Positions 3,776 to 46,750 of a stretch of DNA of 64,000 nucleotides are shown here, piece after piece. The notes under the pieces are model-generated. The model was not told the origin of the DNA. It did not search any database and was given only the letters and a program-made list of their open reading frames with translations. How positions within the stretch are numbered: the first letter of the stretch is position 1; the number at the start of each line of letters is the position of its first letter. The translations under genes and the position numbers were made by a program. Source of the stretch: a virus (lineage: Duplodnaviria > Caudoviricetes); the IMG/VR virus record IMGVR_UViG_3300031994_000039, positions 32,001-96,000 of that record; one strand, given 5' to 3'.

Positions 3776-4143
3776 CTTTCAGCCTTTGTCTGACCGGAGC
3801 AGTATAGATGTATGTCTAAGGAGTACCACTGTGACGAACCTTTAAATCCACAGATTACTGTGAACTTCCTGCTACCATCATTCGTCGTGCCGCAATCTAC
3901 TATCTTACTTATGCCTTCAAGACATAAAAAATCTACCGCATTAGTCCTAAGCGTTATGCTTCCCAATGTGGTAGAAACCATAATAGTTTTAAATTGTAAC
4001 ATAAACCGCGCGGTACTTCCCATCAGATCGGATGGCCCTCGTGACATTACCGAAATTCCTGTTATTCTTTCTTCGTTCTCTTTAATAAAAGAACCTATTC
4101 TTTCTATACCCTTTTTAACCTCCGAAGATTTAAACATTTTCAT
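3772..4143 (-). CDS. Hypothetical protein
   Basis: ORF with RBS (AAGGGGT) in operon orientation. Confidence 0.6.
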   Translation of the reverse strand: MKMFKSSEVKKGIERIGSFIKENEERITGISVMSRGPSDLMGSTARFMLQFKTIMVSTTLGSITLRTNAVDFLCLEGISKIVDCGTTNDGSRKFTVICGFKGSSQWYSLDIHLYCSGQTKAES

Positions 4144-4185
4144 CTTACCCCTTCTTATTTATTTTTTCTTACCTGTTTCAAAGGT

Positions 4186-6339: not shown

Positions 6340-6849
6340 TTACTTACCTCCTAGAAAACTTACAAATTCCTCATGAACTACTGGTGTATTTTCTGCTATA
6401 TTTTCTACCGCACATCTTACTTTCGATATACCACTAGGGCTATATAAATGTTCGCACACTGAGATCATCTCATTCCACTCTTTAATAGCAGCATCCCTGT
6501 TTGGGTTTGGAGCGCAATGCTTTGCAAATCCGCAATTTAAATTACTGCACATGAAAAAGTGTCCATGCAACTTACTCGGGTTGATTGTCGCTGTTGGTTC
6601 GGCTCCGCACACTGGACATGGTACTAATTTATTAGCTGTTTCACACATCGCATTCCATTCGGCTACCGCATCAGCCGGATCAACAGCAAAAGAATGTAAT
6701 TTAGAAGAGCATGACGGATTGCCACACATCACTAAACAACCATCTTTTGCAGGTTTCCTAAGCCAGTCCCATATAAGGTTGTCTCTCTTAGGTCTCATTA
6801 ATACTGACTCTTCTCCGCAAACCGGACATGGTTTCATTTCTTCTGCCAT
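6340..6849 (-). CDS. Tandem Lar-like (restriction alleviation) zinc-ribbon domains
   Basis: Two PCPVCG...C-x4-C...A-x-x-x-WN units; ends VHEEFVSFLGGK; start chosen at RBS GGAGGTGA. Confidence 0.7.
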   Translation of the reverse strand: MAEEMKPCPVCGEESVLMRPKRDNLIWDWLRKPAKDGCLVMCGNPSCSSKLHSFAVDPADAVAEWNAMCETANKLVPCPVCGAEPTATINPSKLHGHFFMCSNLNCGFAKHCAPNPNRDAAIKEWNEMISVCEHLYSPSGISKVRCAVENIAENTPVVHEEFVSFLGGK

Positions 6850-9710: not shown

Positions 9711-10883
9711 TTACCTTTCTGGATTCAACATCAGAACCCCTTCAACAATCTTATCAAGTGCGTAGTTAATCTTTTCTTCTGTCAAAAACCAGTCGAACGA
9801 TATTCTTACTGTGCAGAACGCCTCTTCGTCAGTCATCCCGATTGCTTTGAGCACATAACTTGGTACTGTTTCGTGTGAAGTACAAGCTGACCCCGCTGAT
9901 ATATACACTTCATTAGTGTCCAGATACATCAGTAATGTCTCACTGTCAACTCCGAAGAATGTAATGCTCAACGTCTTACCGTTGTTAAATTCCTGGCAGT
10001 TGATTCTGTATCTGCTCGGAGATAATCTCTTAGAAAGCTCATCACAGAAATACTCAGACAAATCCTTAGTATAATCAAGGAATCCTACATTTTCTGATAA
10101 TGTCAGAGCTGCTTCACCGAACCCTACAATACCCGGGACATTTTCTGTTCCCGCTCTCATTCCAAATTCCTGAGCAGAACCGCCATCAATCAGATGAGTT
10201 TCCACCTTCGGAAGACTTGGAAGCGAGAACCCTAAAGACTTAGGATCCCTTATATAAAGACATCCAACTCCCTTAGGTCCGTGTATCTTATGTGCTGAGA
10301 ATGAAGCGTAATCACAGCCGAGTTTCTTAACATCAACCTGAAGGCAAGATAATGCCTGGACACAATCAACATGAAGTTTCATTCCGAATTTCTTGCAATA
10401 TTCTGAGATCATTTCGATATCATTCACCGCACCTGTTTCGTTGTTGACATACATTGTAGAAACTAATGTCTTATGTGGTACTGCCACGCTACTGAGCTTT
10501 GTCTTAACTTCCTCTTCGGACAGAACACACTGTTCATTTACCTTTAACACTGGAGAACCAAGCACTTCATGGTATATTGAACTGTACTTTAAAACAGATT
10601 TATGTTCGACATTAGAACATATAATATTTGAGCATCCCTTGGCATTCTTGATTGCAAGATTGTTTGCTTCAGAACCGCCAGATGTAAAGATTATCTGTTC
10701 CGGTTCCGCATTGATTAACGCAGCAACCTGTTCTCTCGCCTTATCAATTGCAGCCTTAGCTTCTCTTCCAAGATTATACTTACTTCCTGGATTGCCATAG
10801 CACTCCTGTAAATAAGGGAGCATCGCGTTCACTACGTTACCAAGTGGCTTTGTTGTGGCTGCGCTATCTAAATAAACCTGCAT
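9711..10883 (-). CDS. iscS: Cysteine desulfurase (IscS/NifS, group I)
   Basis: YLDSAATT, FTSGGSEANN, PLP lysine in SAHKIHGPKG, catalytic Cys in SAGSACTS. Confidence 0.95.
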   Translation of the reverse strand: MQVYLDSAATTKPLGNVVNAMLPYLQECYGNPGSKYNLGREAKAAIDKAREQVAALINAEPEQIIFTSGGSEANNLAIKNAKGCSNIICSNVEHKSVLKYSSIYHEVLGSPVLKVNEQCVLSEEEVKTKLSSVAVPHKTLVSTMYVNNETGAVNDIEMISEYCKKFGMKLHVDCVQALSCLQVDVKKLGCDYASFSAHKIHGPKGVGCLYIRDPKSLGFSLPSLPKVETHLIDGGSAQEFGMRAGTENVPGIVGFGEAALTLSENVGFLDYTKDLSEYFCDELSKRLSPSRYRINCQEFNNGKTLSITFFGVDSETLLMYLDTNEVYISAGSACTSHETVPSYVLKAIGMTDEEAFCTVRISFDWFLTEEKINYALDKIVEGVLMLNPER

Positions 10884-11701
10884 TAACTTACTTCCTCCTT
10901 AACTTCCACAATATCACAACCGGATAAGTAGTTGTGATCTACGGAGCCGAGATTTAAATTCCTATACGCTTCGTCAATTTCCTCCGCCGTGATTCCTATG
11001 TAAGCAAGTGTTTGTGCTGGGGAAGAATGATTCAACATCTTCTGAAGCAACATTAACTTACGTGGATCGTTATGGCTCATTAACATCTGATGATAACAGA
11101 ATGTCTTTCTCAACGAGTGAGTGGACATCTTCATATCCAGTGATAAATCATCTGCGATCCTGTACAGAATTCCATTGATTGACCTAACATCAAGCGGACT
11201 GTTCACGTTCTTTCCTCTATTGGACAAGCTACGAAACATGAAATCGCTGAGCGAAACGCCGTCTGTATGTTCAAGATATAATGTAACCGCCTCAATTACT
11301 GCATCGTTGACGGTTATATATCTGTTGACTTTCTTTTTCCTGGTGTTCCTTGTCTTCTTCTCGAAGACCGGAAATCTGTCTTTAAAAACAAAATTCGGAT
11401 TGATAATGTTAGCAAACCTCAGAAGCCTGAGGTCGCTAACTCTCAACCCGAAGTTAATTCCTACAACAAACAGCATGTAATCACGCCATCTGCCGTTCTT
11501 TTTTAAATAATCACAAACCCTTTCAATATCTTTCATACTCTTGATCGGGTCTGATGTTCTGTCTTCACAGACATCTTCTGGACAACTCTGTGTTGCCGGA
11601 GCAATAAGCCCCGCACTGAGCTGCTTGTTGTTTCTCTTGAGCTCTGATACATCAATTGTCTTATACATTCCTGCATCAACTGTCATGAGAATCACCACCA
11701 T
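10883..11701 (-). CDS. Tyrosine recombinase (catalytic domain only)
   Basis: GLRVSDL, EKKT, HSLRKT, LNHSS, TLAYIG: complete R-K-H-R-H-Y set; true start may be MYKT at 11668. Confidence 0.9.
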   Translation of the reverse strand: MVVILMTVDAGMYKTIDVSELKRNNKQLSAGLIAPATQSCPEDVCEDRTSDPIKSMKDIERVCDYLKKNGRWRDYMLFVVGINFGLRVSDLRLLRFANIINPNFVFKDRFPVFEKKTRNTRKKKVNRYITVNDAVIEAVTLYLEHTDGVSLSDFMFRSLSNRGKNVNSPLDVRSINGILYRIADDLSLDMKMSTHSLRKTFCYHQMLMSHNDPRKLMLLQKMLNHSSPAQTLAYIGITAEEIDEAYRNLNLGSVDHNYLSGCDIVEVKEEVS

Positions 11702-12974: not shown

Positions 12975-15242
12975 TCATTCTTCGTAGTCGCAGAGGATTT
13001 TTCCCTTGTATTCTTTACCTTCATCTGATTCAAGGAATGCATTTCTGAGCCCAATAATATCGTATGAACGAATTTCCTGCCCCTCTTCCTTGATTCTTCT
13101 GAGGAATCCGTAGAACATATTCATGATTGGTGTTGTAAGTTTGCTTGTTTCGTGCATATAACCCTGTCTGCCAACGACCTGAGCTACCATTCTCATGAAC
13201 TTCCAGAAGTTATAGTAGTTAAGTTTCATCTTAGTCATGTAACCGTTAGCATCTTCAAGAACGAATCCCTCGATTTCCTTGCCGTCATACAGGTAGTCAT
13301 TCTTATGGCATTCATTGTAGAACTTATTGAACTCTGTCCAGTCATTAAACACCGCTGCCTTTTCCTTGCACTCTACACCAATTGTATTCGCAATCACCTG
13401 AGTTTCCTCGTAGCTGTATGCCTCGAAGAATGTGTAGTTGTGAACGACATTTAGGAGTACAAGTTTCTGCTTTGGATATTCTATGATGTGTGGATCATTT
13501 ACTGGGTCAATCACCTCGAAGACGAATGTAACATTATTCTCCTTAGTGTATCCTTTTATTGCCTCAATTGCTTCCTTGGAAACAGTCTTCTCAAGAATTT
13601 CTCTGATGTATCCTGCATGACTGCCTGTTGTACTTGACTTGGACGCAATGAACAGGTCGTCCTTGTATGGATCATATGATACAAGTCCGAGGAAACCATT
13701 TTCTTTTCTGTATGCCGTTACAGGGAATACGAATTTCCTCTTCAGCCATTCAAGCTTTGTTTCTTCACGTTCACCGATGTTGAAGAACTTATCATAAGCA
13801 CGAGCAATTATTCTCTCATTCGGCACATCGACGAATAATCCTCTTGCTCTTGTGGTCATGCCATTCCATTCTTTGTTCTGGAAAGCTTCTCTTGTGAAGT
13901 TGAAGGACGAAATCTCACCCTCTTTAGTTTCCTTGATGAGCTTGCTTGCTCTCATTGCAAGAACCATATCACCAACGGTACCATCGTGTGGATGATGCTG
14001 TGCATAATCATCTGTCTCAGGTTCAAATTCCTTGAATACATCATTCTTCATTTCATGTGTTTCGATCTTTCCATCCGGATAAATCGTTACACCTCTGAGA
14101 CATCCGCCGAACTCAACCTTGCCTTCAAGATTGTAGCAGCAATCATTGACCTCGATCGGAACATCATCAACATTTCTATGACCGTGAATCTGAATACAGT
14201 CAACTGTGTTCTGCATAAATGCATTATCCACTTCAACTGAATCCTTATAATTGCCGACACCCTTAATCATTGTCTTTGTTGGGACAAGTGTAAGATTGTC
14301 AGGCATACAGCTAAGTCCACCGTGAGTTATAAGGAATTCCTTACCGGCAAAATTAAAGTGAGCCATCTGCCATAATTTACGGTAGAACTGCTTTGCATCC
14401 GATCTTGAGATACCGCCTTCTTCAAGCTGCGGTCTTGTATGGAACTCAAATTCCTTGGATACTGATACACAGTCATGACCCCAGTCATTAAGATGGTGTT
14501 CGTGATTTCCTTCGAGGAACACTATATTCTTAAGCTGAGATAATTCGTAGAGGTATGCGAATGTTTCTGCATTCTCGATTCCTCGATCCAGGTAATCACC
14601 AAGGAATATAAAAAGCTCGTCTTCATTAAAAGCCGAGCCATGAAATTCTTCTATGTATTTTTTCAGTGCTGTATAACATCCATGAATATCTCCGATAACA
14701 TGAATCTTCTTATACACACCATTGTAATCTGCAGGTGCGCCCCATACTGTATCCAGTTCATCAGGCTTGATAACCTTGATTCTTCCCGGAATCTTCTGTG
14801 TCTTGAATCTTGCATAAATCTTGTCGATTGCAAATTCCGGAACAACCTTGTAGCCGATTCGCTGTCTATTGCGACGCTTTACTTCCTCTGGATCAATATC
14901 GGTCATATCAATACAGTAGCAGCGATAGCGATAACGTTCACAGAGATCCTTGTATCTGTTCATTTCTGTTGTCTTTGAATTAACTGCGTCGATGACCGTA
15001 AACTCTCCGTTAGCCATACGACGTTCCAGGATTTCAAAGAGGAGATTCCATGCATCATTGCTTAAGCTCTGATCAATTTCCTCATTACCTTCCTTGTTAA
15101 GGATAGGTGAGCCGTATAACATTCTCAGCGAGTCTGCTGAAAGTGTGTACGGCTCTAAGTAGTTGTTTTTAATGAATGTGGACTTCCCGCAACCGGGAGC
15201 ACCACGGAACAGAAGTAATACTCTCATTGTAAATTCCTCCAT
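12975..15242 (-). CDS. RNA repair enzyme: polynucleotide kinase + metallophosphoesterase + Rnl1-type RNA ligase
   Basis: GAPGCGKS P-loop; GDIHG, GDYLDRG, GNHE, HGH phosphoesterase; KENG adenylation motif, EGFV, KFFN. Confidence 0.9.
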   Translation of the reverse strand: MEEFTMRVLLLFRGAPGCGKSTFIKNNYLEPYTLSADSLRMLYGSPILNKEGNEEIDQSLSNDAWNLLFEILERRMANGEFTVIDAVNSKTTEMNRYKDLCERYRYRCYCIDMTDIDPEEVKRRNRQRIGYKVVPEFAIDKIYARFKTQKIPGRIKVIKPDELDTVWGAPADYNGVYKKIHVIGDIHGCYTALKKYIEEFHGSAFNEDELFIFLGDYLDRGIENAETFAYLYELSQLKNIVFLEGNHEHHLNDWGHDCVSVSKEFEFHTRPQLEEGGISRSDAKQFYRKLWQMAHFNFAGKEFLITHGGLSCMPDNLTLVPTKTMIKGVGNYKDSVEVDNAFMQNTVDCIQIHGHRNVDDVPIEVNDCCYNLEGKVEFGGCLRGVTIYPDGKIETHEMKNDVFKEFEPETDDYAQHHPHDGTVGDMVLAMRASKLIKETKEGEISSFNFTREAFQNKEWNGMTTRARGLFVDVPNERIIARAYDKFFNIGEREETKLEWLKRKFVFPVTAYRKENGFLGLVSYDPYKDDLFIASKSSTTGSHAGYIREILEKTVSKEAIEAIKGYTKENNVTFVFEVIDPVNDPHIIEYPKQKLVLLNVVHNYTFFEAYSYEETQVIANTIGVECKEKAAVFNDWTEFNKFYNECHKNDYLYDGKEIEGFVLEDANGYMTKMKLNYYNFWKFMRMVAQVVGRQGYMHETSKLTTPIMNMFYGFLRRIKEEGQEIRSYDIIGLRNAFLESDEGKEYKGKILCDYEE

Positions 15243-15301: not shown

Positions 15302-15544
15302 TTTGTAATCTAAAGACTGAGATCATGATCGTCATTTCTTTCGGGCCGCCAGGCCAGGAAGAAATTTCGATCCTGATCTTTAGGGTTTGCTATTTTGCAA
15401 ACTAACTTTGCTTTACTTTCGCTGACAGCAAAAGCCGCCTTTATTATTCTTAGCCTACTTCCATCGTAGGGAGGAAGAGCGGATTCCCACCGCATTGCCA
15501 ACTTATCAGGTTGGAGGTAAATAAAAGCATGATGTCATTACAAA
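15302..15544 (-). ncRNA. Structured RNA closed by terminal inverted repeats; candidate third retron-like msr-msd
   Basis: TTTGTAAT/ATTACAAA terminal IR followed by G; six internal hairpins including a long CTAAAGA..GATCG/CGATC..TCTTTAG stem. Confidence 0.45.
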
Positions 15545-17430: not shown

Positions 17431-17757
17431 CTCAGTCACGTTTTATTTTTATGTCGAGTCAGAACTGAGACACTCGACAATTACGAATCGTTTATTGGCA
17501 CACTGTATATTTAGATATACATTAATAGAAATACTGTCAAGTTGTTTATAATTCCCACAGTTATGTGGATCAAACAGTATAATTTTTTCAAACACTGACT
17601 GAAGAACTTTTAAATATTTTTGTTTTGCGATCAAACAGAAATTTTAAAACAAAATTCGGTGATCAAGTTTTCGCGTTACTTTCGCTGACAGCAAAAGCAT
17701 GTTATAGTCAACATCATTTCTTCTATCAATCAGTCCCGCGTCTACTGCTGAACGATA

Positions 17758-20273: not shown

Positions 20274-21440
20274 TTATAAAGTTTTCAAGTCATTCTTAAT
20301 TGACTCAGCTATATTCAAGCCGACCTTCTGACTCATCTTGTCAACTATTTTCTGAATGGCTTCCTTTTCGACCATCGAGAAGTAATTACGATACCCTTCG
20401 AGCACTTGAATGTCATTCAACGACCAGTCCTTTCCGTTCTTTTTGTCCATGCCGTATGAATACAACATTGCGGTGAACTTTTTCTTGTTCTTATATCCGA
20501 CTGTAATCTGATTGTCCTTATTAAGCATTACGCCAAGATTCCAGTTTGAACCTGCAGAAGAACCATACCTTGTCTTCTTTCTATTAAGCTCGAACGGAGC
20601 TCCGAATTCCTGAAGAACCTTTACTATTTCGTCCTCAATCATCTTGTAACTGAAGTCTATCTTACATGATATGATGAAGTCATCCGCATATCTTGTATAC
20701 ACAAACTTCCTGTTATCATAATCCCTGAACATATTAAACAGCTTGTAGTCAATTGGGATCATCATGATGTTTGTTATTAGTGGGCTGATCGGAGTTCCTT
20801 GAGGAAGCCCGCCGTTTAAGAACGCAAGGCTGATTGCCTGCTCGAAATATTTCTTTCCTTCCGGAACCGCAAGAACTCTGGAAAACGGAAAAATCATACT
20901 GAACATCTTTGTCACGAATTCCGGAGTTGTGCTTCCAAAGAAGTTATGAAGGTCGAACTTTGCAAACCACTTACTTTCATTACCCTGATGTCTCTTTACT
21001 GCATCCAGTGTGCTTCTGCCTTTTATATATGCAAATGCTGATGTATGATACATCGCACCAAATCCATCCTCGAAGATGAACTTAAGTTCCCGAAGCGCCT
21101 CCATAAGTCTCGGCTTAGGTGCATCGATTCTACGAAGGCCGCCGGATCTCTTCGGAATGTGGAATGATCTATAAAGTTCCGCTCTATCCACTTCAAAGAG
21201 ATCCTTGTACTTCTCGTTAAAGCACCACAATTCATTAATGAGTGACTGAATATTCAAACTGCCGAATATCTTTTCAGCATTTCTGGATAAGTATGTTCGT
21301 GTGTTTGTATTCCTGCCGTCCTTGCGTGTATAGTTTTTATATCTTTCGTTCCATTCATTATCTGGTAACGAAAAGAAATCGTCCAGAGATAGCTGAACTG
21401 TTTTCTTATTAAGAACAACTACTACATACTCATTGTACAT
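20274..21440 (-). CDS. Retron-type reverse transcriptase (388 aa)
   Basis: IPKRSGGLRRIDAP, region-X-like SAFAY..GRS...DAVKRH, KFDLHNFFGS, GLPQGTPISP, YTRYADD, region-Y-like NLGV; start at ATG after AAAGGAGG. Confidence 0.9.
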   Translation of the reverse strand: MYNEYVVVVLNKKTVQLSLDDFFSLPDNEWNERYKNYTRKDGRNTNTRTYLSRNAEKIFGSLNIQSLINELWCFNEKYKDLFEVDRAELYRSFHIPKRSGGLRRIDAPKPRLMEALRELKFIFEDGFGAMYHTSAFAYIKGRSTLDAVKRHQGNESKWFAKFDLHNFFGSTTPEFVTKMFSMIFPFSRVLAVPEGKKYFEQAISLAFLNGGLPQGTPISPLITNIMMIPIDYKLFNMFRDYDNRKFVYTRYADDFIISCKIDFSYKMIEDEIVKVLQEFGAPFELNRKKTRYGSSAGSNWNLGVMLNKDNQITVGYKNKKKFTAMLYSYGMDKKNGKDWSLNDIQVLEGYRNYFSMVEKEAIQKIVDKMSQKVGLNIAESIKNDLKTL

Positions 21441-21459: not shown

Positions 21460-21651
21460 TTAATTGTCAACCTCCACGACAATCTTATTATTGTCCAGAG
21501 AGAAGAAGACCACGGCGTGATCGAGGAAATCCTCAACCCGCTGTGGACTTTCGTTCTTTGTGCTTTCAATTATAACTTCCTGACTGCCTGCAGAAACCAG
21601 TGTGAAGTCTATGCTCAGTGCAGCCTTACTGTAAAAATCCCCAAATTTCAT
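21460..21651 (-). CDS. Small protein (63 aa) between DUF5688 and the RT
   Basis: AGAGGA RBS; fills the gap upstream of the RT. Confidence 0.6.
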   Translation of the reverse strand: MKFGDFYSKAALSIDFTLVSAGSQEVIIESTKNESPQRVEDFLDHAVVFFSLDNNKIVVEVDN

Positions 21652-21672
21652 TTTTCCTAGTCCTCTTTATTT

Positions 21673-22584
21673 TTAGCAATTAACCGTCGTAAATTCTTTC
21701 GTGTCTTTATTGAAGAAGAATATCTCTCCAGAAAGAGTATCCGCTGGTCCGAATATTCTATTTGTTTCCGTTACATTACGCTTAATGCTCGTCGGATCGA
21801 TGCTTCCAACCTTGTGAACCATAGCCTCGTGTATACTTGTGAACGCTACGTAGAAGCTATCGCCGTACATTTCTGCAAGCTTTTCCTTAACTCCCGGACA
21901 GAACATTGCGATCGCTCCGTTTGTTTTCCTGCTGGTTGTGACGAGCGTGACTCTGTTGTTACTAAGTCTTTCCTTGCTTTCGAGAACTTTCTTTCCGCTT
22001 CCGTCAGTTATGTTAAACATGTCTGTGTAGAACATTGGAACCTGATTCTTTACTGTGTTCTCCATTGCAGCCGCGAAGATATCCAAATCCTTCATACCTG
22101 TCTGCTTCTTATATCCTTCGACACATCTCATCGGAACCTTTATTGTGTTCAAGATTCCGTCGCAGTCACTCATAATAAGGTAAAGAACCAGCGCAATATC
22201 ACCCTTCTTGCAGTACATGCAAGGTTCTTTTGCATTCTTCTGGATAAATTCCGCACTATAATTCACAGGTCTGATGATTAATTCGTCCTTAATCTTAGTG
22301 TAGTCTTCTATTCTGTCGATCTTATTCATGAATCCACCAGCCCTTTTTCTGATGCTTGTCAAAGCCTCGCCAGTTGCCCTAAGGACAATGTCCCATCCTC
22401 TTTCGTTTACTGACTTCTGTGTATCTGCCAGTCTTACTGCCATTGATACCTCATCGCCGTTCAGTTTTATTCTTGCAACCTCTACATCATTTACACATTC
22501 AACGAGGAATTCCTCATTTGCCTGGATAAGATTGTATTCTTCCATTTTTTCTTTTAATACCTTTGCAAATTCTTTGTTAGTCAT
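21673..22584 (-). CDS. DUF5688-family protein
   Basis: LIIRPVNY...GDIALVLY...TNGAIAMF.P...FYVAFTSIHE...LSGEIFFF. Confidence 0.7.
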   Translation of the reverse strand: MTNKEFAKVLKEKMEEYNLIQANEEFLVECVNDVEVARIKLNGDEVSMAVRLADTQKSVNERGWDIVLRATGEALTSIRKRAGGFMNKIDRIEDYTKIKDELIIRPVNYSAEFIQKNAKEPCMYCKKGDIALVLYLIMSDCDGILNTIKVPMRCVEGYKKQTGMKDLDIFAAAMENTVKNQVPMFYTDMFNITDGSGKKVLESKERLSNNRVTLVTTSRKTNGAIAMFCPGVKEKLAEMYGDSFYVAFTSIHEAMVHKVGSIDPTSIKRNVTETNRIFGPADTLSGEIFFFNKDTKEFTTVNC

Positions 22585-22625
22585 AATCAAAACCTCCAAG
22601 TTTAATTATCTTACTACCATTGTTC

Positions 22626-22903
22626 GTGTAACCTGATTACCTTTCAGGATCTCAGGGCAGCGGGCGCTGGTGCCACCGGCGCGCGTCAAAGCGATCTTTT
22701 ATTTGTTCCTTTGCGGAACAAAAGAACGAAGGTCCACGTATTTGCGTGCTTCCTGAGATCTGTTTCTCTAATCAGGGCGGCTCCAGATCCGGAGATGGCG
22801 ACTTGAGTTGTCGCCTCTCCTCCTCCTTCGCCTTATCATGTCGAGCCTTTTAATTACATCAAAAGGTTATTTCATATTGGATATAAAATAATATGCGTTA
22901 CAC
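22626..22903 (-). ncRNA. Retron-like msr-msd ncRNA 1
   Basis: Terminal IR GTGTAAC/GTTACAC; G immediately 3' of the 5' repeat (22896); two short 5' hairpins; long 3' stem CCTGATTA..GATCTCAGG / CCTGAGATC..TAATCAGG. Confidence 0.75.
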
Positions 22904-22932
22904 ATTTTCATGTATTAATAAAAGATAGCGTG

Positions 22933-23017
22933 ATACATAAATTACATAAACAATACCGCCGCAAAAATCCCGCAAACCACGTAGCTATCAGGTTTGCGGG
23001 GGATAGTTTTTTCCAAC
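22933..23017 (-). promoter_or_regulatory. Promoter/operator-like element, homologous to 41509-41584
   Basis: GTTGGAAA-A-AACTA + IR enclosing TAGCTACGTGGTT + ATTTATGTAT. Confidence 0.55.
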
Positions 23018-23057
23018 TTTCTTGCGGAGTTATGTTTTATTACGTTTTGTCGCTCGC

Positions 23058-23720
23058 TTAAAAAGCGTCGATTTCAAAGCTCTTCAGATCAACTAAAACC
23101 ATCTTCTTAATTCCTTCGCCCTTTACGAAGTGTATGAAGTTGGTTACTGCGATTGACGATACCACTCTAACAACAGGGCACACGCCCAGTGTAATGCCGC
23201 AAGCTGATGTGGGAGTTTCTGCCTTCGCTTCTTCATGGCTGAACTGCATTGTAGCCAGAAGATTTTCCCTCATGCTTTTATCTGACCAGTCAGCAGCGTA
23301 ATGCTGTGCGTGCTCTAACAAAGTTCTTATGTCGAACACTGCTTTAACCATCGGATTAAGCATATGTTTTTCACAGATTTCTCTGCGGATCTCGATACTG
23401 TCTACGCAAAGGAAGACATATCCTGCAAGAGTTTCACCGTTCCAACCCTTCTTTGTTTTGATCTCGATGTCCGGATTGATGTTCTGGAGAATACCCTTGA
23501 GAGCTTCTGTCTTTTCCTTGCCGACATCTTCTTTCGTGAACATCTGGTTCACGATATTATGTTCCTCTACCTTATCAAAATCCCAGAGAACCATTGACTT
23601 TACGCCACAGCGGGCGAGGTTTTCTGCGATTGTTGAACCGACAGATCCACATCCGATGATGTGGATGTTGCCGTTTACATTGCTTGGGTTGAAGTATTCG
23701 AGTGATTTTGATAAATTCAT
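23058..23720 (-). CDS. ThiF/E1-like adenylyltransferase
   Basis: IIGCGSVGS, WDFDKVEEHNIVNQ, FLCVDS, SACG (candidate catalytic Cys); no CxxC zinc pairs. Confidence 0.9.
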   Translation of the reverse strand: MNLSKSLEYFNPSNVNGNIHIIGCGSVGSTIAENLARCGVKSMVLWDFDKVEEHNIVNQMFTKEDVGKEKTEALKGILQNINPDIEIKTKKGWNGETLAGYVFLCVDSIEIRREICEKHMLNPMVKAVFDIRTLLEHAQHYAADWSDKSMRENLLATMQFSHEEAKAETPTSACGITLGVCPVVRVVSSIAVTNFIHFVKGEGIKKMVLVDLKSFEIDAF

Positions 23721-23721
23721 A

Positions 23722-24333
23722 TTAACACGCCTCCACAAATAATTCTTCAAGGTTCACCTTTTCTTCTTCAGGTTCTTCTTTGATCTGGACTTCCGTTGTA
23801 CAGTACTCTTCAAATGCCTTCATGAGTTCTTCGGCAAATTCACTTTCCTGTTCTTCTGTAAGAGCTGGTGTCTCAGGTTCAGGTTCCTCTTCCGGAATCT
23901 CATAATTGTCAACAATTTCATGGATGATGTCCATTATATCTGTTGCTGCTTCCCCTTCTGCGGCAGGTTCTTCTTCCTCCTCAGGGTCATCCTCTTCTTC
24001 GGGTTCATCTTCCCATTCCTGGTTGTTGTCCATATATGATTTGAGATCGTCTTTATAATCATTGAACTGCCCGTCGTTGTCGTCTGTTCCTCTCCACGTT
24101 CCGTCGTAGTCGTCGTGTATATATCTGTCATACCTGTCACTTGGTATATCATCAACCAAGCTTCTTAAATCTGACAGAGAGTCGCAGTACTTTGCGTCAT
24201 CGAGAATTCTGCTTTCAAATTCGCCGTGCGTATATAAACCGCCTGTGAAAACATCATTAAAATAATCATAATCCCTTGCGCATTGTTCCAGTTCATCATA
24301 GGTGGTGATATCTTCAAACTCTGTTCGTGTCAT
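23722..24333 (-). CDS. Highly acidic protein in the Ubl operon
   Basis: D/E-rich throughout, with EEEDDPEEEEEP tracts. Confidence 0.7.
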   Translation of the reverse strand: MTRTEFEDITTYDELEQCARDYDYFNDVFTGGLYTHGEFESRILDDAKYCDSLSDLRSLVDDIPSDRYDRYIHDDYDGTWRGTDDNDGQFNDYKDDLKSYMDNNQEWEDEPEEEDDPEEEEEPAAEGEAATDIMDIIHEIVDNYEIPEEEPEPETPALTEEQESEFAEELMKAFEEYCTTEVQIKEEPEEEKVNLEELFVEAC

Positions 24334-24352
24334 ATTTCAGACCCTCCTTACC

Positions 24353-25162
24353 TTACCATCCGCAACCAAATCTTTCGCTCAGCCACGCTTCGTATTCCTC
24401 ATCTGTCATGCCAGCGTAGTAGTCACTATATTTTGATTTCTTACCGCCTTTGCCTTTGCCGATAGTCTTTGTGTCGGCTAAGGTACCCTTCAGATTGTAA
24501 ATCTGTGTACCTGTGTATCTTGGGAAGTATTCATCAACCACGAGTTCCTTCGCTTTTTCTGCGAACTCCAGGATTTCCTCTTCGACATCGACGAATACCG
24601 TAACATCATTGTCTTCATAGACTGTGTTACTCTGTTTATCGTAAATGTTTACGTATACGTCTCCTTTTTTATTTGTAACCAAGAAGATATAGAAGTCGTC
24701 GTCTCTGAGCTGATCAACGATTCCTCCGTAATAGGTTTCGTCTACGCTTGAAGGAGTTACGCCCATGTTTACATGGCTGTGCCCCTGCATTCTTAAGTTC
24801 TGAAAAACCTCGTCTGGCTGTTCGTAGAGCCACATCTGATACTTTTCCTGATCCGTAGTGACAGTTGAACCTGTTACCTTCTGCGGGTAAACTACTATGT
24901 CGTCGATGACATAATCGCCGTCCTTTACCTTTCTGGCGATGCCGTGCCATGCAACCTCTTTATCAAACTTATCAACCAGTGCTCTCATTTTCTTATCGGC
25001 AAGCTGACTGATTTCCAGTGAAGCTTTTTTGCCGGTATTCAGTGTGAGTTTCTTGCTGTAGTTGACTGTGTTATTCTTGAAGACTCCGGCTGCGAGAAAT
25101 TTTAAAAATTCCTCACGGATCTTTTCAATTTCTGTCTGATCTATATTAAATGCACGACTCAT
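24353..25162 (-). CDS. JAB/MPN+ metallopeptidase (deubiquitinase-like)
   Basis: EVAWHG...GHSHVNMGVTPSSVD = E...HxH-x7-S-x2-D. Confidence 0.9.
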   Translation of the reverse strand: MSRAFNIDQTEIEKIREEFLKFLAAGVFKNNTVNYSKKLTLNTGKKASLEISQLADKKMRALVDKFDKEVAWHGIARKVKDGDYVIDDIVVYPQKVTGSTVTTDQEKYQMWLYEQPDEVFQNLRMQGHSHVNMGVTPSSVDETYYGGIVDQLRDDDFYIFLVTNKKGDVYVNIYDKQSNTVYEDNDVTVFVDVEEEILEFAEKAKELVVDEYFPRYTGTQIYNLKGTLADTKTIGKGKGGKKSKYSDYYAGMTDEEYEAWLSERFGCGW

Positions 25163-25166
25163 ATGA

Positions 25167-26570
25167 TTAACCTTCCTTTCTAAGTTCCTCAAGAACTTCA
25201 TTGAGTGTGTAGCTGTTTCCGTTTAATTCAAAAGCTCTCTTGTTTGTTCTTGTTATGCGAGTTGTAAACTCTTCCATAACGGTGCTGTCTGCGAAGTTCA
25301 ATGAACGAACTGACATTCCGCAGAGACTGAGACACTGGATTGTATCGCCCGCCTTGAGCGCATCGACCATCATCATTTCATAGTCACCTAAACAGTGGTA
25401 ACGGTCGATATGTGTATTCGGGAAGTAATCCTGAACTTCTGGAATGTAGCTTGCGTCTGCTATTCCAGTCACTCTGAACTCGCTTATCTTTATTCTGTAA
25501 GCTGCAACACTCTTGAGCTTCACACTATGTTCTACGAAGATCGCATTGAAGAGTTTTTCTGTGTCCTCTCTGCTGATGTTTGAATAATCGTAAATAATAC
25601 TATCGTAATTATCTACAAATTCCTCAGCTGTATCCGAATCAAATACATCAAGATATCCAGTAGCAAAAAACTCGATTGAGTCGCCGCTGCATGAATTGAA
25701 TACGAGATTTTTATTTGCCTTGAAGAAGTCGAGAATTTCGTTACTTTCATTCTTCACAACATTTCTTAATCCATCAATAATGATGTTCTTATCTCTTATC
25801 TTTATGAGCAGATTCGAAATTTCCTCACGCTTCATAGCTATCGTCTGTTCCAGTGATGAGATTTCGTTCTTGTGATATTCTAACTTATTCTTTGCAAAGC
25901 GAGTCTCAATTCCTGAAAGTGCTGCTTCCATTTTCCTTTCCCGGATGCCCTTGATAGCTGCGATGTTTGCGATTGCCTTTAAGAAAGGTTCTACGTTAGT
26001 CTTGCTGAGAGTTTCAAGGAACTCTGTTTCCTCTTTGGTGATAGGCTTTTCCTTGAAGAACCACGGCAGATATACCGGAGTTCCCATTAATACATAACGT
26101 TCTGTTTCAAGAGACATATTTTCTATCGGCTTATAGATTACGATTGTCCGCTTGCCGCATGTGAAACATGTTACCTCAGTTCTGCTAAAGAACTTTCTAA
26201 CCTTCGCAGTTTCAACCCATTCCGGGCTCTTTTCCTTAACTCCCTCGCTGAGTTCGTCAAACCACTTTGTATCCGATCTCTTTACAGATATCAGCCATAA
26301 ATCCTCATCACACTTTTCTGTGTCGAATGTGAGTAATCTGTTGTGTAATTCATCGTATGATGAATCATACATGCCAGCGTTTCTGGTTATTTCGTTATAC
26401 CTGATTTTGAATGGCGCGTCGTCTTCGACCCTGTCGATTAATAACGCTCTTACAACCATATTGAATACTACGTCTGTACTATAATTCCATTCGATCTTAT
26501 AGATCTTCTTATCATCTTCGTCTTCGTTGTAACTGAAGGCAGTTGATGCTGGGATTCTTCCGTTGAACAT
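25167..26570 (-). CDS. Coiled-coil + prokaryotic E2-like conjugating enzyme
   Basis: Central coiled coil; C-terminal PNTHIDRYHCLG resembles the E2 HPH/HPN...CLG active site; context with E1, JAB and Ubl. Confidence 0.65.
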   Translation of the reverse strand: MFNGRIPASTAFSYNEDEDDKKIYKIEWNYSTDVVFNMVVRALLIDRVEDDAPFKIRYNEITRNAGMYDSSYDELHNRLLTFDTEKCDEDLWLISVKRSDTKWFDELSEGVKEKSPEWVETAKVRKFFSRTEVTCFTCGKRTIVIYKPIENMSLETERYVLMGTPVYLPWFFKEKPITKEETEFLETLSKTNVEPFLKAIANIAAIKGIRERKMEAALSGIETRFAKNKLEYHKNEISSLEQTIAMKREEISNLLIKIRDKNIIIDGLRNVVKNESNEILDFFKANKNLVFNSCSGDSIEFFATGYLDVFDSDTAEEFVDNYDSIIYDYSNISREDTEKLFNAIFVEHSVKLKSVAAYRIKISEFRVTGIADASYIPEVQDYFPNTHIDRYHCLGDYEMMMVDALKAGDTIQCLSLCGMSVRSLNFADSTVMEEFTTRITRTNKRAFELNGNSYTLNEVLEELRKEG

Positions 26571-26630
26571 TTAAAAATTCCTCCTTAGAAAGATTGGCGG
26601 GGTGTTGTGTTCCCCGCCTTTTGGTTTTGG

Positions 26631-26943
26631 TTTGTGTAACCTAATTAGAAGTTGATCCTGATGAAGGATGAGTTCTGGGCTACTCAACCAGGTGAACTTC
26701 TATTACGATGACCTTTTTCCTGATCTGCGGGCTGCGCAATCTTGGGGCTTCCTGAACATATTTCTGCTTGGATGTTGATTGAGCTTTTAATTTTTTTTTT
26801 TAGTATGTTTTAATCAGATAAAACAGTACCCAGCTCGTGTCCAGATACCTCCTTCCGGCGGAGGTGCCTCCTTTCCCTTAACAATGCGATCCATTCACTG
26901 ACAGTAAATGGTTGTTTTAAAAAAACAAAATGCGTTACACAAA
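26631..26943 (-). ncRNA. Retron-like msr-msd ncRNA 2
   Basis: 10-bp terminal IR TTTGTGTAAC/GTTACACAAA, G at 26933; 5' ~90 nt and 3' TAATTAGGTTACAC are homologous to ncRNA 1. Confidence 0.75.
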
Positions 26944-26972
26944 AATCAAATACTAGTTTTATTCAGCAGAAA

Positions 26973-27200
26973 TTAAGCGTTGTCTGCTTTAACCACCTGT
27001 AAGAGGTAGCATTTATCAGTAACGCCGTAGTCTGCAAAGGTCTTATTGAAATCCGCACTGCCTACGACGCTGCCGTTGAGTGTGATTCCGCCTGCGGCAA
27101 CATTGAGATTTGCCTGTTCTGCGGCTTCGAGAATTGTAGTGCTTGGGTCAAGAACTAATTCTGTTTTATTGAGTGATGTTCCGCTTATTACCTTAATCAT
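26973..27200 (-). CDS. Ubiquitin-like (beta-grasp) protein, copy 1 (75 aa, ends KADNA)
   Basis: Size, TT(I/L)xE...LNG...KTF.DYGV pattern; AAGGAGG RBS; context. Confidence 0.75.
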   Translation of the reverse strand: MIKVISGTSLNKTELVLDPSTTILEAAEQANLNVAAGGITLNGSVVGSADFNKTFADYGVTDKCYLLQVVKADNA

Positions 27201-27284: not shown

Positions 27285-27665
27285 TCACATAATTGTGATG
27301 CTATCCATTGCTGTGCTGAGTGCGTTCTTGGCAGCTTCGATCTTTTCCGGAGCAGTTGCCTCGAATGCGTTCATTTTAGCAAGAGCCTTGCCATACTTTT
27401 CAGCAATGAACCCCTTGATCTTATCCGGTTCAAGATCGCCGACAGAAACTGAAGTGCTTGCGTAGCCGCTTGCATCAGTCTTATCGAAGGTGATTCCGTA
27501 TGTTCCGATTGAGCCTGTGGTTCCTGTTGCAACCTTAAAATCAATTTCCTTTTCCTCGTTCTTAACGACGAGTGCTTCAGGTGTTACTGTTGCAAGTGTT
27601 TCGAGATCTGCTGTGAGAATTGTGCTTGTGAAAACTGCGATGCCTGAGATTACTGTTACCTTCAT
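27285..27665 (-). CDS. 126-aa protein, paralog A in the Ubl operon
   Basis: Same length and clearly similar to 27751-28131. Confidence 0.8.
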   Translation of the reverse strand: MKVTVISGIAVFTSTILTADLETLATVTPEALVVKNEEKEIDFKVATGTTGSIGTYGITFDKTDASGYASTSVSVGDLEPDKIKGFIAEKYGKALAKMNAFEATAPEKIEAAKNALSTAMDSITIM

Positions 27666-27750: not shown

Positions 27751-28131
27751 TTACATAATTGTGATGTTGTTCATTGCTGTTTCAAGAGCTGACTTAGCAA
27801 GTGCGATACGCTCTGGTGCAACCTCTTCAAAAGAGTTCATCTTTGCGATTGCCTTGCCATATTTAGTGGCAATGAATTCCTTCACCTTGTCTGCCGGAAT
27901 GTTACCGATTTCAACAGATGTTGAAGCGAAGCCGCTTGCGTCTGTCTTGTCGAAGGTGATTCCGTAGGTACCAACTGAGCCCTTTGAGCCTGTGTCAACC
28001 ACAAACTCAATTTCTTTTTCTTCGTTCTTGGCGATGAGCACTTCCGGAGTTACCTTCTTGAGTGTTTCCAGATCAGACATGAGAACTGCACTTGTGAAAA
28101 CCGCGATTCCGCTGATTACAGTAATTTTCAT
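27751..28131 (-). CDS. 126-aa protein, paralog B in the Ubl operon
   Basis: MKITVISGIAVFTS...GTYGITFDKTDASG shared with paralog A. Confidence 0.8.
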   Translation of the reverse strand: MKITVISGIAVFTSAVLMSDLETLKKVTPEVLIAKNEEKEIEFVVDTGSKGSVGTYGITFDKTDASGFASTSVEIGNIPADKVKEFIATKYGKAIAKMNSFEEVAPERIALAKSALETAMNNITIM

Positions 28132-28592: not shown

Positions 28593-28621
28593 ACTATATC
28601 ACAGCGTTGTCTGTTTGTCAA
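28593..28621 (-). promoter_or_regulatory. Sigma-A promoter of the Ubl operon
   Basis: TTGACA-17 bp-TATAGT with extended TG. Confidence 0.75.
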
Positions 28622-37606: not shown

Positions 37607-40600
37607 GTGGTTACTATTAGCAAGCAGTTGACATGTCAGAAGTACATTCTGAAGATTAACAGCTCAAGGCTTCGCAGAGAGAAGTGGAATCTTAACGTCT
37701 CACTTGACGAAGCCAGGAACAATGACGAGATCATCTCACTGGCGGACAGTCAGATGCTCAGGTGGATCGACGAGCTGAATGGAGTAACGGACGCTGACAG
37801 AAAGGCAAAGTCAATCAAAAAGCAGATAAGGGAACTGCGTAAGTGCGAACCGTCTTTACAAATACGCCGTGAAATGCGCAGGCTCTATTCTGATCTGGAT
37901 GCACTTCAGTTTAAACCGGACTATCTTTGTTTAATTATAGACAAAGGTAAAGATTATCTGCGAGCAGTAAAGGGATTTAAAGTAAACGGAATAAAGTATA
38001 AACGTTTGCTTGGAACTACTGGTGGTATTAAGAACTCCACCATAGTGTTTGTCTCGGAAAGGCTCTCGGACGAGCTGCACAGGCGTATCAACAACGGTAG
38101 GGATATGACCAAGGCTATGGTGCCCGCCAAGCTGAATGCATACATGGCGCTGACCTGTAGTGCTTCAGTTCCGGTATCACTACCGAAAGGGATCCTGGTT
38201 GTGGATGATGTAGAGACTGAGTTCCTCTCAGATATCATTTATCTCTCCAGTCAGGATGAGGGCGAACCGGTGATGGAATACAAGAAGGATTATCTTATGA
38301 AGCTTGATGCCACTGACGGCTTCGGACTGATGCTTCCCTCTCTGGCACAGAGGTGGAGTGAGGAGATAGGTCTTGACTATACGGCAAGCGGTATGTGCTG
38401 TAGGTACAGCTTTACTAAGGGTATGGTTTTTACGTTTGACTTTCTGGACTTTGCTGATAAGGTCGCAGGCGGCAAATATCTTGTCAAGGACGTATGGGGC
38501 AACGAGGTGGATATCAGGAATGTAGAACTGATACTGACCACATCTATGTTAAAGTTATGGGACAGCTATCCAAGCTGTGAGGAGTTTATCAGATTATCTG
38601 AGGAGAATCACTATACATTCGCTATAACCAAAGCGTGCCCGGAGGTACTTGAGGATGAACGATGTTTAAACTATCAGTTTGTACAGCCATTTAACCTCGA
38701 TGAGGATGATATACAGGAACTTATCTCCCCTACCCTTAACGAGATATGGGATGTGCTGCAAGGCGACTGGCGGCGTGCTCTCGTATTCCTCAGAGGCGTA
38801 GGTATGACGGAAGAAAACATTGGCCGCTCAGCTGATGATATCGCTAAGGCTATAATGGCGGACCAGAGAGTGTTCGATGATCCATATGTCCAGAATAGTA
38901 TTTATCAGCTTATCAGGAACAGAATTAACGCTGCGAAGATAGGCGTGCTCAAGGTTCACGCAAATTATTCGATTGTATCTGGAGATCCATATATTCTGTG
39001 CCAGAAAGTATTTGGTCTGGAGGAAACCGGATTACTTAAGGCCGGGGAGATATATAATCAGTATTGGGCTGATAACAGCTCTGATGAAGTAGTGTGCTTC
39101 AGAGCCCCGATGTCTTGTCATGAAAATATAAGGAAAATGAAAGTTTGTAAGTCCGATGAGGTTCGGTACTGGTATCAGTATATGAAGACCTGCACAATAC
39201 TTAATGCGTGGGATGAAACAATGCCCTCATTAAATGGATTAGACTTCGACGGAGATCTCACGTTTATAACAGATAACGAAGTTCTACTCCGCAGACATGA
39301 AAAGCTTCCGGCTATTGTTTGTATCCAGAAGAAGGCAGAAAAGAAAATAGCTTCGGAAGAAGACTTCGTTGTATCTGATATGAATGCTTTCGGTAATGAT
39401 ATTGGCAGTATTACAAACAGAACTACTTCAATGTATGAGGTTAGGTATAACTATGAAAAAGGAAGCAGAGAATATGAAGAGCTTACATACCGCATAAGGT
39501 GTGGTCAGCTCCTACAACAGGATTATCAATTATCGACTAGTCCGCTTGTACAGAAATGTGCTTGAAAAACGACTCATTGAATTGCTGGAATCCCTTAAAG
39601 CTTACAGTGCTACAACGGAGGAGCGAACAGTTCCAAACGTGAATGCGGCGAAAGCAGAAAGAAACTGTAAGATGGTATATGGTTAAATCCTAAGTATTAA
39701 GCAATAGGCAATCTAGCAGCTAAGTTCCGAACAGGAGAAAGTTCAACGACTAACTCTTATGAGTGTAGGGATACAAGCTATTGGTATTTCGAAGTGGTGG
39801 GCATCCTTAGGGATGATGATATAGTCTTCTCTCAGTCGAAATGGCTGAGGACGAAAGTCGGCAAGGAGTAGCGTCCTATTATAACTTAAATAGTTTAGCC
39901 AAAAGGAAAGGGCAATTGATAAAGCAAAGGGTATTATATCTCTTCCGGCTCCGAGAGAGTGGTACGATCGTCATGCGGTAGCTAAGATCGAAGATGATGA
40001 GAAGCGTGATTTCTACCGCACGATCATCGCAGACAAAAAGCCAATGTTCATGACCTACATCTACCCTTCTCTGGCGAGAGATTATAAGGACTTTCTATCC
40101 AGTACAAACAAGAACGCGTTGAGAGAGTTTGGTATGACAGTAGGAGAACTTAAAGAAAAGAGATATGATGAACTCACACCGAGACAGATTGAGTTCCTGC
40201 ATTATTACGATAAGATGATGCCGGTTGGCTTAAATGACTGTGTAATGAACAGAATCTGCAGAATCTTCGAGAGAGAGTTTGATGACTTCATCAAGAACAA
40301 GTCCGGTACAAATGCTGAATTTGATCCGGAGATCCTGAAGAGTGGCATAACTTATACTGACAAGGATTATAAGGCCGTTAGGAATCTGCATAATGATTAT
40401 CTTAACAGACTCAAGAATTATAAAACCAGAGCGTGCTATGAGCGTGTTGATGGTGATGAATTCAATGAACAGCTCGACAGAATCAAAGCTGAGTTTGAGG
40501 AAGAATGTGACAAGGTTTGTCCGTGTAGAAGAACACTCACAGACATCCTTATTGATATTTGTTATTCAAACGCATCCACCAAGAGATATATCTGGAGCTC

Positions 40601-44471: not shown

Positions 44472-46750
44472 GCGTGAAGCTATCATGGAGGGAGCTGCCT
44501 ACTGGGGCAGCTTCTATCGTCACAATATTGATAAATTCGTTGAGGATTACTTACACATAAGGCTCAAACGATTCCAGAGAGTTATTTTAAGCATGATGGT
44601 TTACGTCACTGTATTTGTACTGATAGCTTGCCGTGGTTTAGGTAAGACATATCTCAGTGGCGTGTATTGTTGTGTTCGCTGTATCCTGTGGCCCGGCACG
44701 AAAATATGCATAGCCTCAGGAACACGTAACCAGGCAGGCGCAGTTCTTGAAAAGATAATGCTCGAACTGGTTCCGAATTCTCCAGAACTTAGAAACGAGA
44801 TTGATTACAAACAAACAAAGATCAATGGTACTCAGGCTCAGATAGTTTTTAAAAACACAAGCGTTATTAAGGTTGTTACAGCGAGCGATAGTTCTCGTGG
44901 TAATAGATGTAACGTTTTACTTTTGGATGAATTTAGATTAATTCACAAAGATATAATTGACACAATCCTCAGAAAGTTCTTAACACTTAGGCGTATGCCA
45001 AGATACGAAGAGCTTACCGAAGTAGAGCGAAGAGCTGAGTATGACAAGGAAAAGAACTTGACACTCTATATGAGTTCTGCATATTTTAAGGACCATTGGT
45101 CATACCAAAAATGTGTTGATACATTTAAAGCTATGATGGATGATACACGCAGACAGTTCGTCTGTGGATTTCCATATCAGCTTTCAATTTCAGAAGGTTT
45201 ACTTGATGCTGAAGCGGTTGCGGATGAAATGTCTGAGTCTGACTTTAGCGAAGTAAAGTGGAGCATAAACATTTCTGTGCTCCTTAAACTCATTGAACTC
45301 ATTAACCTAATGAGGGTACTACAATGTAGTGCTAACAGGGAAACCCTAAGTGCATAAGCATATGGCAATCCTGTGCCAAGACATAATTATATGTAAGGTG
45401 CAACGACCATCCTATATGGAGTACATCAGAGACAGGTACTGGTGGAAGCGGTGAGAACGAGTAGTCGTTATGATATGGTCTGATCTATTATGAAAGTAAT
45501 AGCTAACAAATAAATAGGAAATGGATGCGCTCTTCTACGGAAGTGGCGAAGACGCGTTCTTTGATTTCTCTTCTATTTCAAAGAACCGCAGAATAAAATA
45601 CCCAATGTTGCCGGAGAAACTTGCAAACAAGCTCGGCAACTCTAATCAGGTTAAGATACCTCAGAAGGCTCACGGTGAGGTAAGAATACTTTCTGCCGAT
45701 ATTGCGCTCATGTCGTCGAAGAAACATAATAACGACGCGACTGCGATATTTATTAATCAGATGAGTGCTACTAAAATTGGCAGGTATGTGAGCAACATTG
45801 TTTATGCAGACACATACGAAGGCCTGCGAACAAATGAACAAGCGTTAATAATACGCAAACTATATGAAGAGTATGATTGCGATTACATTGTACTTGATAC
45901 TAACGGTAGACTGATGCCGCTTTGCATAGTAATATGCATTGAAAAAGTGAAGAATCAAGCGGGAAGGCTGAGATGCTAACCCGAACCGAAGGCTATTGGT
46001 AATACGATAGTCAGGGGCAACGCATAGGTGTGAAACTAGTTATAGAATATAATCACCCACGAGGCTTCACCATCTGAACAATTCAGATGAAAAGATATGC
46101 TGAACTTGTAGGAAATCAACTACAAGAGCTATGAGATAAAAAGCTCATAGGATAACAATGACCTGATCGGTCTTGGTGTGTTCGATGAACTCGCCCACGA
46201 TATTATTGATGCAGACACTGGAGAAATCTACCCTGCCCTCTCTTGCTATAACGACAAGACGATGGCAGAAAGATGTACAGTACCCGGTGCCGACAAAGTT
46301 ATATATTCAGTTAAAGCTTCAGCGCAGTTCAACTCAGACTGCGCATTTTTATTGCGTGAAGCATTTAAGAGCGGTCGTGTTAGATTGCTTGCAACAGAAT
46401 ACGATGCTGACGAATATCTAATGGAAATAAAGGGTTATGCTTCCCTGTCACCATCAGAGAAGCTTTCGATAAAACTTCCTTATATTCATACCACACTGTT
46501 GATAGACGAACTTACAAAACTGCAACACGAAACATCGGGCGGCAAGGTTCGTATCTTCGAGAAGCCGGGTATGCGTAAGGATAGATACTCATCATTATCA
46601 TATAACTACTACGTAGCTATTCAGATAGAAAACAAACTCAGCAAGAAGGCAAATAACAGTATAGAAGAAAGTTTCTTCGTTGTTAAACCTCCGAGCATTG
46701 GAAAGGCGGTGAACAGACACGGCACAAACAGAAAACAAACATTCTGGTAA
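44464..46750 (+). CDS. Terminase large subunit, spliced (exons 44464-45266, 45517-45907, 46166-46750; ~592 aa)
   Basis: ACRGLGKT, LLLDEFR, SADIA, LDTNG|IGLGV, KDRYSS nuclease motifs; the joined exons are in frame. Confidence 0.88.
45267..45516 (+). mobile_element. Group I intron 1 in terminase (one non-canonical splice site)
   Basis: P1 GGAGCAU/GUGCUCC, P10 CAUUUC/GAAAUG, P7 GACCA/UGGUC; the in-frame join makes the last base A. Confidence 0.8.
45908..46165 (+). mobile_element. Group I intron 2 in terminase
   Basis: P1 CGGU/GCCG, P10 AGACUGAU/AUCGGUCU, P7 GCAUA/UAUGC, terminal G. Confidence 0.88.

Follow-up and report, generated by a model that had tools for sequence, protein, structure and literature searches.

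A phage-borne retron-type reverse transcriptase with several template RNAs is inherited together with a Bil-like ubiquitin-like conjugation operon

The 64-kb stretch of DNA analysed here (the window), which comes from a large gut phage and covers part of the 112.5-kb IMG/VR virus record IMGVR_UViG_3300031994_000039, carries an operon for ubiquitin-like protein (Ubl) conjugation together with a retron-type reverse transcriptase (RT) and two retron-type non-coding RNAs (ncRNAs), nc1 and nc2, and across a large phage clade RT and Ubl operon are passed on together. With somewhat better than even confidence, we consider the locus to be one conserved phage module, in which an undescribed type of phage retron is partnered with a Bil-like operon as its effector arm. 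Retrons and bacterial ubiquitin-like systems are recent additions to the biology of phage-bacteria conflict and are thought of mainly as bacterial defences. To our knowledge a retron and a bacterial Ubl system have never been reported to work together, and a full-text literature search found no paper pairing retrons with ThiF, Ubl or Bil systems. Here both are phage-borne and locked together in well over a hundred distinct contigs, with one RT and several template RNAs. Should they act together, reverse-transcribed DNA would be linked to protein tagging in a new manner, and the compact multi-template retron RTs might be of interest for genome editing.

The linkage was established by searching viral contigs from three anchors, the RT, the E2-like protein and the E1 of the Ubl operon; seven related loci from Clostridia metagenome-assembled genomes and six contigs reached via distant or close RT homologues were added, and the whole was pooled and de-duplicated. 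The pooled set holds 133 distinct RT genes with 37-79% identity to the window RT. An E1 gene is found upstream of the RT in 129/129 distinct RT genes that are informative, that is, which have at least 3.5 kb of upstream DNA, and, seen from the opposite side, an RT lies downstream of E1 in 123 of the 124 informative distinct E1 genes. Directly upstream of three distant RTs (37-42% identity) there is likewise a ThiF gene. The sole RT-less locus, L161, is 97% identical to L162, minus 1.5 kb (about L161:12400-12800), with its Ubl operon intact; the one cassette that remains combines parts of the upstream and the downstream cassette, which means that recombination between the flanking msr repeats has removed the RT. 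Open reading frames (ORFs) that flank the module in the window have homologues in at most 8 loci, and mostly in none, versus 74-81 loci for five module genes, and thus the linkage is conserved far better than the genome around it. The carriers are phages of 60-150 kb that belong to a large clade; among GenBank phages blastn gave no match to the 8-kb region. A first-pass annotation of the window, made from the sequence alone, had proposed to look for synteny of this RT clade with E1, E2, JAB and Ubl genes, with independent occurrence of the two modules in relatives as the outcome that would speak against a coupling. The synteny is strongly positive from each of the three anchors, and no such independence was seen.

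nc1 and nc2 are paralogous retron-type ncRNAs. Their anatomy is that of retron RNAs, with two msr hairpins that covary, an a1/a2 stem and, just past a1, a G-C-A that is invariant. In nc2 the a1 repeat TTTGTGTAAC (26943-26934) and the a2 repeat GTTACACAAA (26640-26631) form a 10-bp stem, and in nc1 the a1 repeat TGTGTAAC (22904-22897) pairs with a2 (22632-22625) in an 8-bp stem that includes one G-U pair. Common to both are a 5' TGTGTAACGCAT, two hairpins, the motif TAAGGnnAAGGAGG (2 matches vs 0.27 expected) and a GGTTACAC at the 3' end, paired with the 5' end, and both fold more stably than their shuffled versions (z -5.0 for nc1 and -3.5 for nc2). Their positions and co-orientation, as given in the first-pass annotation, proved exact: nc2 starts 30 nt past the stop codon of the Ubl gene (26973), its end is 60 nt short of the ATG of the E2-like gene (26570), and nc1 lies 3' of the E1 stop (23058) and of a terminator-like hairpin, and 5' of a DUF5688 gene, an ORF of 63 amino acids (aa) and the RT, all of them on the minus strand. 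Rfam at gathering thresholds has nothing for nc1 or nc2; its matches in the window are limited to tRNAs and group I introns.

The same cassette design recurs in relatives with other a1/a2 sequences, such as ATCTGTAAC/GTTACAGAT, ATAACTGTAAT/ATTACAGTTAT and TTAGTTCAAA/TTTGAACTAA; the repeat sequence varies between phages and the pairing is kept. A covariance model of the msr region, R1, was built from the sequences of 17 relatives, and it scores nc2 at 54.7 bits (E 1e-8) and nc1 at 48.7 bits (E 2e-7), with 139 matches in 82 sources, every one on the RT strand. In the 17 seed sequences the G-C-A directly 3' of a1, a candidate site for the retron priming G, is invariant; 82% of cells in the msr hairpins pair, as compared with 64% in shuffles and 38-49% in slid controls, and 10/12 hairpin pairs have changed on both sides. 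These pair counts refer to a structure given by hand; RNAalifold had returned no pairs for six msr regions in a raw MAFFT alignment, in which hairpin 1 was mis-registered. Similarly, a GCA-anchored inverted-repeat scan was noisy and missed the 8-bp stem of nc1, and the covariance model was used in its place. Stems of at least 10 bp between a1 and a2 are present in 30/80 distinct cassettes vs 6/320 shifted controls, and the median length of these 80 cassettes is 297 nt.

Alignment with relatives places the start of the RT most likely at the ATG at 21440, giving a protein of 388 aa that does not overlap with the 63-aa ORF, and shows YADD as the catalytic box. The best 25 PADLOC matches of the RT are all retron RT models (the top one RT_II-A, 2.2e-46), and the best NCBIfam match is the retron St85 RT at 2.6e-50; since its 171 bits fall short of the curated cut-off of 235 bits for St85, membership of this named family is not reached. 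The RT belongs to a clade separate from St85 and type II-A, for which we find 437 representatives at 50% identity with E<1e-30.

All four Ubl-pathway proteins appear from their sequences to retain catalytic residues, and the kit looks functional. The Ubl has a beta-grasp fold, with structural matches that include the bacterial Ubl-deubiquitinase complex 8tyx, and its C-terminus is an invariant (D/N)-N-A, followed by one extra Ala in some relatives, with no C-terminal Gly and no Gly-Gly. Ubl A, one of two paralogues in the window, matches the same Ubl gene in 74 relatives, and a homologue of the 126-aa protein encoded nearby is found just upstream of the Ubl in about one quarter to one third of relatives. 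In the JAB protein the JAMM motif is intact (E82 ... H141-S-H143-x7-S151-x2-D154) and invariant in 11 relatives, and E1, a protein of 220-230 aa with one ThiF domain, has as invariant residues GxGxxG, R47, D57/D59, D117 and C184. In the E2-like protein the motif PN[TP]H-x5-C-x-G (N385, H387, C393) is invariant, and the predicted structure (pLDDT 84) shows a C-terminal domain in addition to a long coiled coil. Leaving coiled coils aside, residues 275-424 best match the structures 8adl_C (Z 7.5), 4nf9 (Z 6.3) and 8aaf (Z 6.3), in which the matched regions are RWD domains, of UBC-like fold. No Pfam family was found for any of 11 members, Foldseek returned nothing at E<=1e-3, a PDB profile search gave coiled-coil noise only and a broad word-indexed search gave only 11 close family members. 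The conserved residues and the Z 7.5 fold match make it likely, but not proven, that this protein is an E2.

How does the locus compare with known systems? The gene order of BilABCD is Ubl-E2-DUB-E1, DUB being the deubiquitinase (PMC10557695). The phage operon has the same four roles in the same order, Ubl-E2-DUB(JAB)-E1, as BilABCD of types I and II, and shares with them a JAMM protease and a beta-grasp Ubl. However, while the Bil E1 is composed of IAD, AAD and CYS domains, the phage E1 is one ThiF domain of ~220 aa, and while the C-terminal Gly of the Bil Ubl is exposed by processing, the phage Ubl ends in a genetically encoded Asn-Ala. The phage E2-like protein is also distinct, being 440-540 aa long, carrying a coiled coil and an additional domain at the N-terminus and matching no Pfam family, and the operon is phage-borne and always followed by a retron. 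With described retrons the locus has in common the YADD RT, an ncRNA on the RT strand enclosed by a1/a2 repeats, a conserved G after a1 that may be the priming G, msr hairpins and conserved neighbour genes. Those retrons have one ncRNA adjoining the RT, whereas here there are usually about three cassettes per RT, on both sides of it and sometimes kilobases away, carried on a large phage; the conserved neighbours, which would be the effectors, are Ubl, E2-like, JAB and E1. We know of no described retron effector that resembles this four-enzyme Ubl operon.

One or more cassettes are present in 80 of the 81 RT-anchored loci, most commonly three. The space between E1 and RT accounts for 79 cassettes, another 106 are found up to 1.5 kb after the RT and 35 further downstream. 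The spacer between the Ubl and E2-like genes, where nc2 resides 5.2 kb upstream of the RT start, holds a cassette in three loci only (L004, L006 and L007), which are near-identical phages. A second lineage with a cassette in this spacer is made up of the window and L174 (79% RT identity), and in a relative with 86% RT identity the spacer is similar in size. A quick RT tree separates the two lineages and places both within a clade that mostly has a tRNA in the spacer. ARAGORN detects such a tRNA in 38/74 loci, tRNA-Leu in nearly all, and in the largest clade the spacer is 135 nt long with neither ncRNA nor tRNA. Examples are a tRNA-Leu (anticodon taa) at L003:3733-3818 and tRNA-Tyr in L026 and L030; a terminator-like hairpin often lies between the Ubl and the spacer tRNA. 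In relatives tRNA genes flank the module on both sides. The module as a whole sits inside the phage tRNA array, and the five tRNAs of the window are found ~3 kb past the RT.

Since either a tRNA or an ncRNA can occupy the spacer across relatives, it appears to be a slot for stable-RNA genes in a tRNA island, and no particular regulatory role has to be invoked for the position of nc2. The most plausible view is that nc2 is a copy of a cassette which came to lie in a permissive spacer, rather than a dedicated regulatory arrangement. The first-pass annotation had taken the physical interleaving of the RNAs with the Ubl genes as a sign that msDNA (multicopy single-stranded DNA, the retron product) may regulate or partner the conjugation enzymes. 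With a spacer cassette in only the window lineage and one other, interleaving does not support a functional link; the alternative offered at the same time, that the cassettes only exploit a strong transcript, is favoured for the position of nc2, in a permissive slot of a co-directional transcript. The proposed coupling to the Ubl machinery nevertheless gains from the conserved synteny, which is now the evidence for it, and the candidate partners are narrowed to the four Ubl-pathway proteins.

A few further elements in and around the tRNA array may be mentioned here. Two near-identical copies of GCTTTTGCTGTCAGCGAAAGTAA (window 17673-17713 and 15402-15455 (-)), located in and beyond the array, have a weak partial likeness to msr hairpin 2 of the relatives, and the copy at 15402-15455 is followed by a long GATC-rich inverted repeat. 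A search of the window for a third cassette with filters off gave only these two partial matches, with no clear a1/a2 stem for either; they may be degenerate or divergent cassettes. Adjoining the array is a gene (12975-15242 (-)) for a 755-aa kinase-phosphatase-RNA ligase (AAA_33, Metallophos and RNA_lig_T4_1), which we read as Pnkp-type RNA repair, and in L174 a Thg1 and a radical SAM gene are also found nearby.

What about the other genes near the RT? DUF5688, the 63-aa ORF and the 174-aa ORF after the RT had all been put forward in the first-pass annotation as effector candidates. They are confined to close relatives or to the window, and we rejected them as general effectors because they are not conserved across relatives. 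Among 252 pooled related loci only L174 has a DUF5688 gene, as does the contig P0002, the other close relative; no PDB relative of the protein was found, and the Atlas gave DUF5688 clusters only. The window subclade (79% and 86% RT identity) keeps the arrangement E1, gap, DUF5688, small ORF, RT. The 63-aa ORF is 62% identical to a 62-aa ORF in the same position in L174 and is thus a real gene, with no homologue in the 81 RT-anchored loci and a distribution restricted to close relatives (>=79% RT identity). For the 174-aa ORF there is no counterpart even in L174, where a third cassette follows the RT. As for the 203-aa protein encoded between JAB and E1, L018 alone has a homologue in the corresponding place, while that of L036 lies at another site; in L174 and on the P0002 contig a gene of 205-212 aa takes the place between JAB and E1. 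In other lineages the E1-RT interval carries different cargo, most often an ORF of ~300 aa with no assigned role (64 loci). DUF5688 and the 63-aa ORF are lineage-specific cargo inserted between nc1 and the RT and not core partners, and the E1-RT interval has the look of a hot spot for insertions, with cassettes at its borders. In L175 (62% RT identity) cassettes are found at 4107-4177, right after E1, and at 6714-6785, before the RT, with Bro-N and integrase-like cargo in between. In another locus an RNase HI gene lies between E1 and the RT (L054:8696-9124); RNase H is the host activity that retrons need for the maturation of msDNA.

In the arrangement that we favour, a Bil-like operon (Ubl, E2-like, JAB and minimal E1) precedes a co-oriented retron in which one RT would serve several msr-msd cassettes and make msDNAs from them. 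In other retrons RT-msDNA partners an effector, and by this analogy the Ubl kit would be the effector arm, with RT-msDNA as a sensing or regulating subunit of the conjugation enzymes. The obvious candidate for a contact with RT-msDNA would be the extra N-terminal domain of the E2-like protein together with its coiled coil. Likely uses would be inter-phage exclusion or the handling of host defence. The phage genome contains three integrase-family (tyrosine-recombinase) genes and some RT homologues are on contigs of 0.28-0.69 Mb, so that a prophage-borne defence role is possible; the tRNA array and the Pnkp-type RNA repair enzyme fit a counter-defence island equally well. A bolder version, which we regard as quite unlikely, has the Ubl machinery as the output arm of a new phage retron type in which RT-msDNAs with differing msd choose or gate the targets for tagging; at its most exotic, the Ala-terminated Ubl would have as its substrate the RT-msDNA itself or the DNA end of the msDNA. 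Several observations weigh against a functional partnership of retron and Ubl operon: the module sits in a tRNA/RNA-repair island, where accessory genes cluster; the carriers form one broad phage group, and inheritance could explain some of the linkage; the E2 assignment is based on a Z 7.5 fold match and conserved residues; and an ncRNA took the slot between the Ubl and E2-like genes in two lineages, which could reflect selection rather than chance.

The alternative to be taken most seriously, to which we give a minor though real chance, is that retron and Ubl operon are accessory systems independent of each other, adjacent only through a shared, co-transcribed tRNA/accessory island and without interaction. 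This would account well for the embedding of the module in a tRNA array, with a tRNA even inside the operon in 38/74 relatives, for the varying cargo between E1 and the RT (the ~300-aa ORF, RNase HI, Bro-N with integrase, DUF5688) and for the terminator-like hairpin after E1 of the window. In an accessory island, however, occasional separation is expected, and instead adjacency and order hold in 129/129 and 123/124 informative cases, down to 37% RT identity, while the surroundings turn over. Very improbable, in our opinion, is a sulfur-carrier pathway of the ThiS/MoaD/TtuB type that thiolates nucleic acid (phage tRNAs or msDNA) and does not tag proteins. A single-domain E1 of ~220 aa next to a small beta-grasp protein is indeed what such carriers have with their ThiF/MoeB-type E1, and the best NCBIfam match of the phage E1 is the ThiS adenylyltransferase ThiF (2.9e-24, under its cut-off). 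The tRNA array and the tRNA within the operon also fit, and the same phage has a class-V aminotransferase gene (Aminotran_5, 9711-10883 (-)), read as a cysteine desulfurase. It also counts for this pathway that some sulfur carriers come with JAMM proteases (CysO-Mec+, TtuB-TtuD). Yet the invariant end of the Ubl is Asn-Ala and not Gly-Gly, the operon never lacks a conserved protein that has an invariant Cys and a UBC/RWD-like domain, the gene order is that of Bil operons, there is no linked sulfurtransferase, and the putative desulfurase is 12 kb off and unlinked to the module in relatives.

The least probable of these explanations is that nc2 is a cis-regulator, such that the polycistronic RNA would be reverse-transcribed and cut by RNase H at this site, and expression of the Ubl thereby uncoupled from that of the downstream enzymes. 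Its start 30 nt past the Ubl stop, with no promoter directly upstream in a consensus scan, would suit this role, and so would the occupation of the slot by an ncRNA in two separate lineages, with a cassette there in L174 (79% RT identity) and a similar-sized spacer kept in the 86% relative. However, ~95% of relatives are without an ncRNA in the slot, half of them have a tRNA instead, which would process the RNA too, without any RT, and the 135-nt spacer of the largest clade has neither.

The minus strand carries every gene between ~28.6 and 19.7 kb of the window, as laid out in Table 1.

Table 1. Layout of the module in the window, with features listed in the order of transcription.
Feature	Position	Strand	Remarks
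Ubl paralogue A, 75 aa	28295..28522	-	C-terminus ...KADNA; 87% identity to Ubl B
126-aa protein, paralogue b	27751..28131	-	no known family, no Pfam match
126-aa protein, paralogue a	27285..27665	-	no known family
Ubl B, 75-aa beta-grasp protein	26973..27200	-	C-terminal Asp/Asn-Asn-Ala invariant; AlphaFold model pLDDT 75
nc2, retron-type msr-msd cassette, 313 nt	26631..26943	-	in the spacer between Ubl and E2-like genes
E2-like protein, 467 aa	25167..26570	-	N-terminal domain, long coiled coil, C-terminal UBC/RWD-like domain
JAB/JAMM metalloprotease	24353..25162	-	start probably the internal ATG at 25162; PADLOC JAB 6.8e-5
203-aa protein	23722..24333	-	no known family; lineage-specific insert in the JAB/E1 interval
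Minimal E1, single ThiF adenylation domain, ~220 aa	23058..23720	-	Pfam ThiF 2.4e-25
Terminator-like hairpin and T-run, 3' of E1	22963..23001	-	CCCGCAAACC...GGTTTGCGGG ATTTTT; read from the sequence, not listed by the consensus scan
nc1, retron-type msr-msd cassette, 280 nt	22625..22904	-	between E1 and DUF5688
DUF5688 protein	21673..22599	-	Pfam DUF5688 7.7e-25; lineage-specific cargo
63-aa ORF	21460..21651	-	counterpart in L174; lineage-specific
Retron-type RT, 388 aa	20274..21440	-	RVT_1 8.8e-18
174-aa ORF	3' of RT	-	not conserved

A promoter-like near-consensus site (TTGACA-17-TATAGT with a TG extension) at 28593-28621 (-), ~70 nt upstream of Ubl A, is a candidate start of the module transcript. 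Elsewhere in the window, the putative cysteine desulfurase gene is followed by a 272-aa tyrosine-recombinase gene at 10883-11701 (-), and three group I introns at the Rfam gathering score are found on the plus strand, at 39514-39849, 45245-45502 and 53551-53875.

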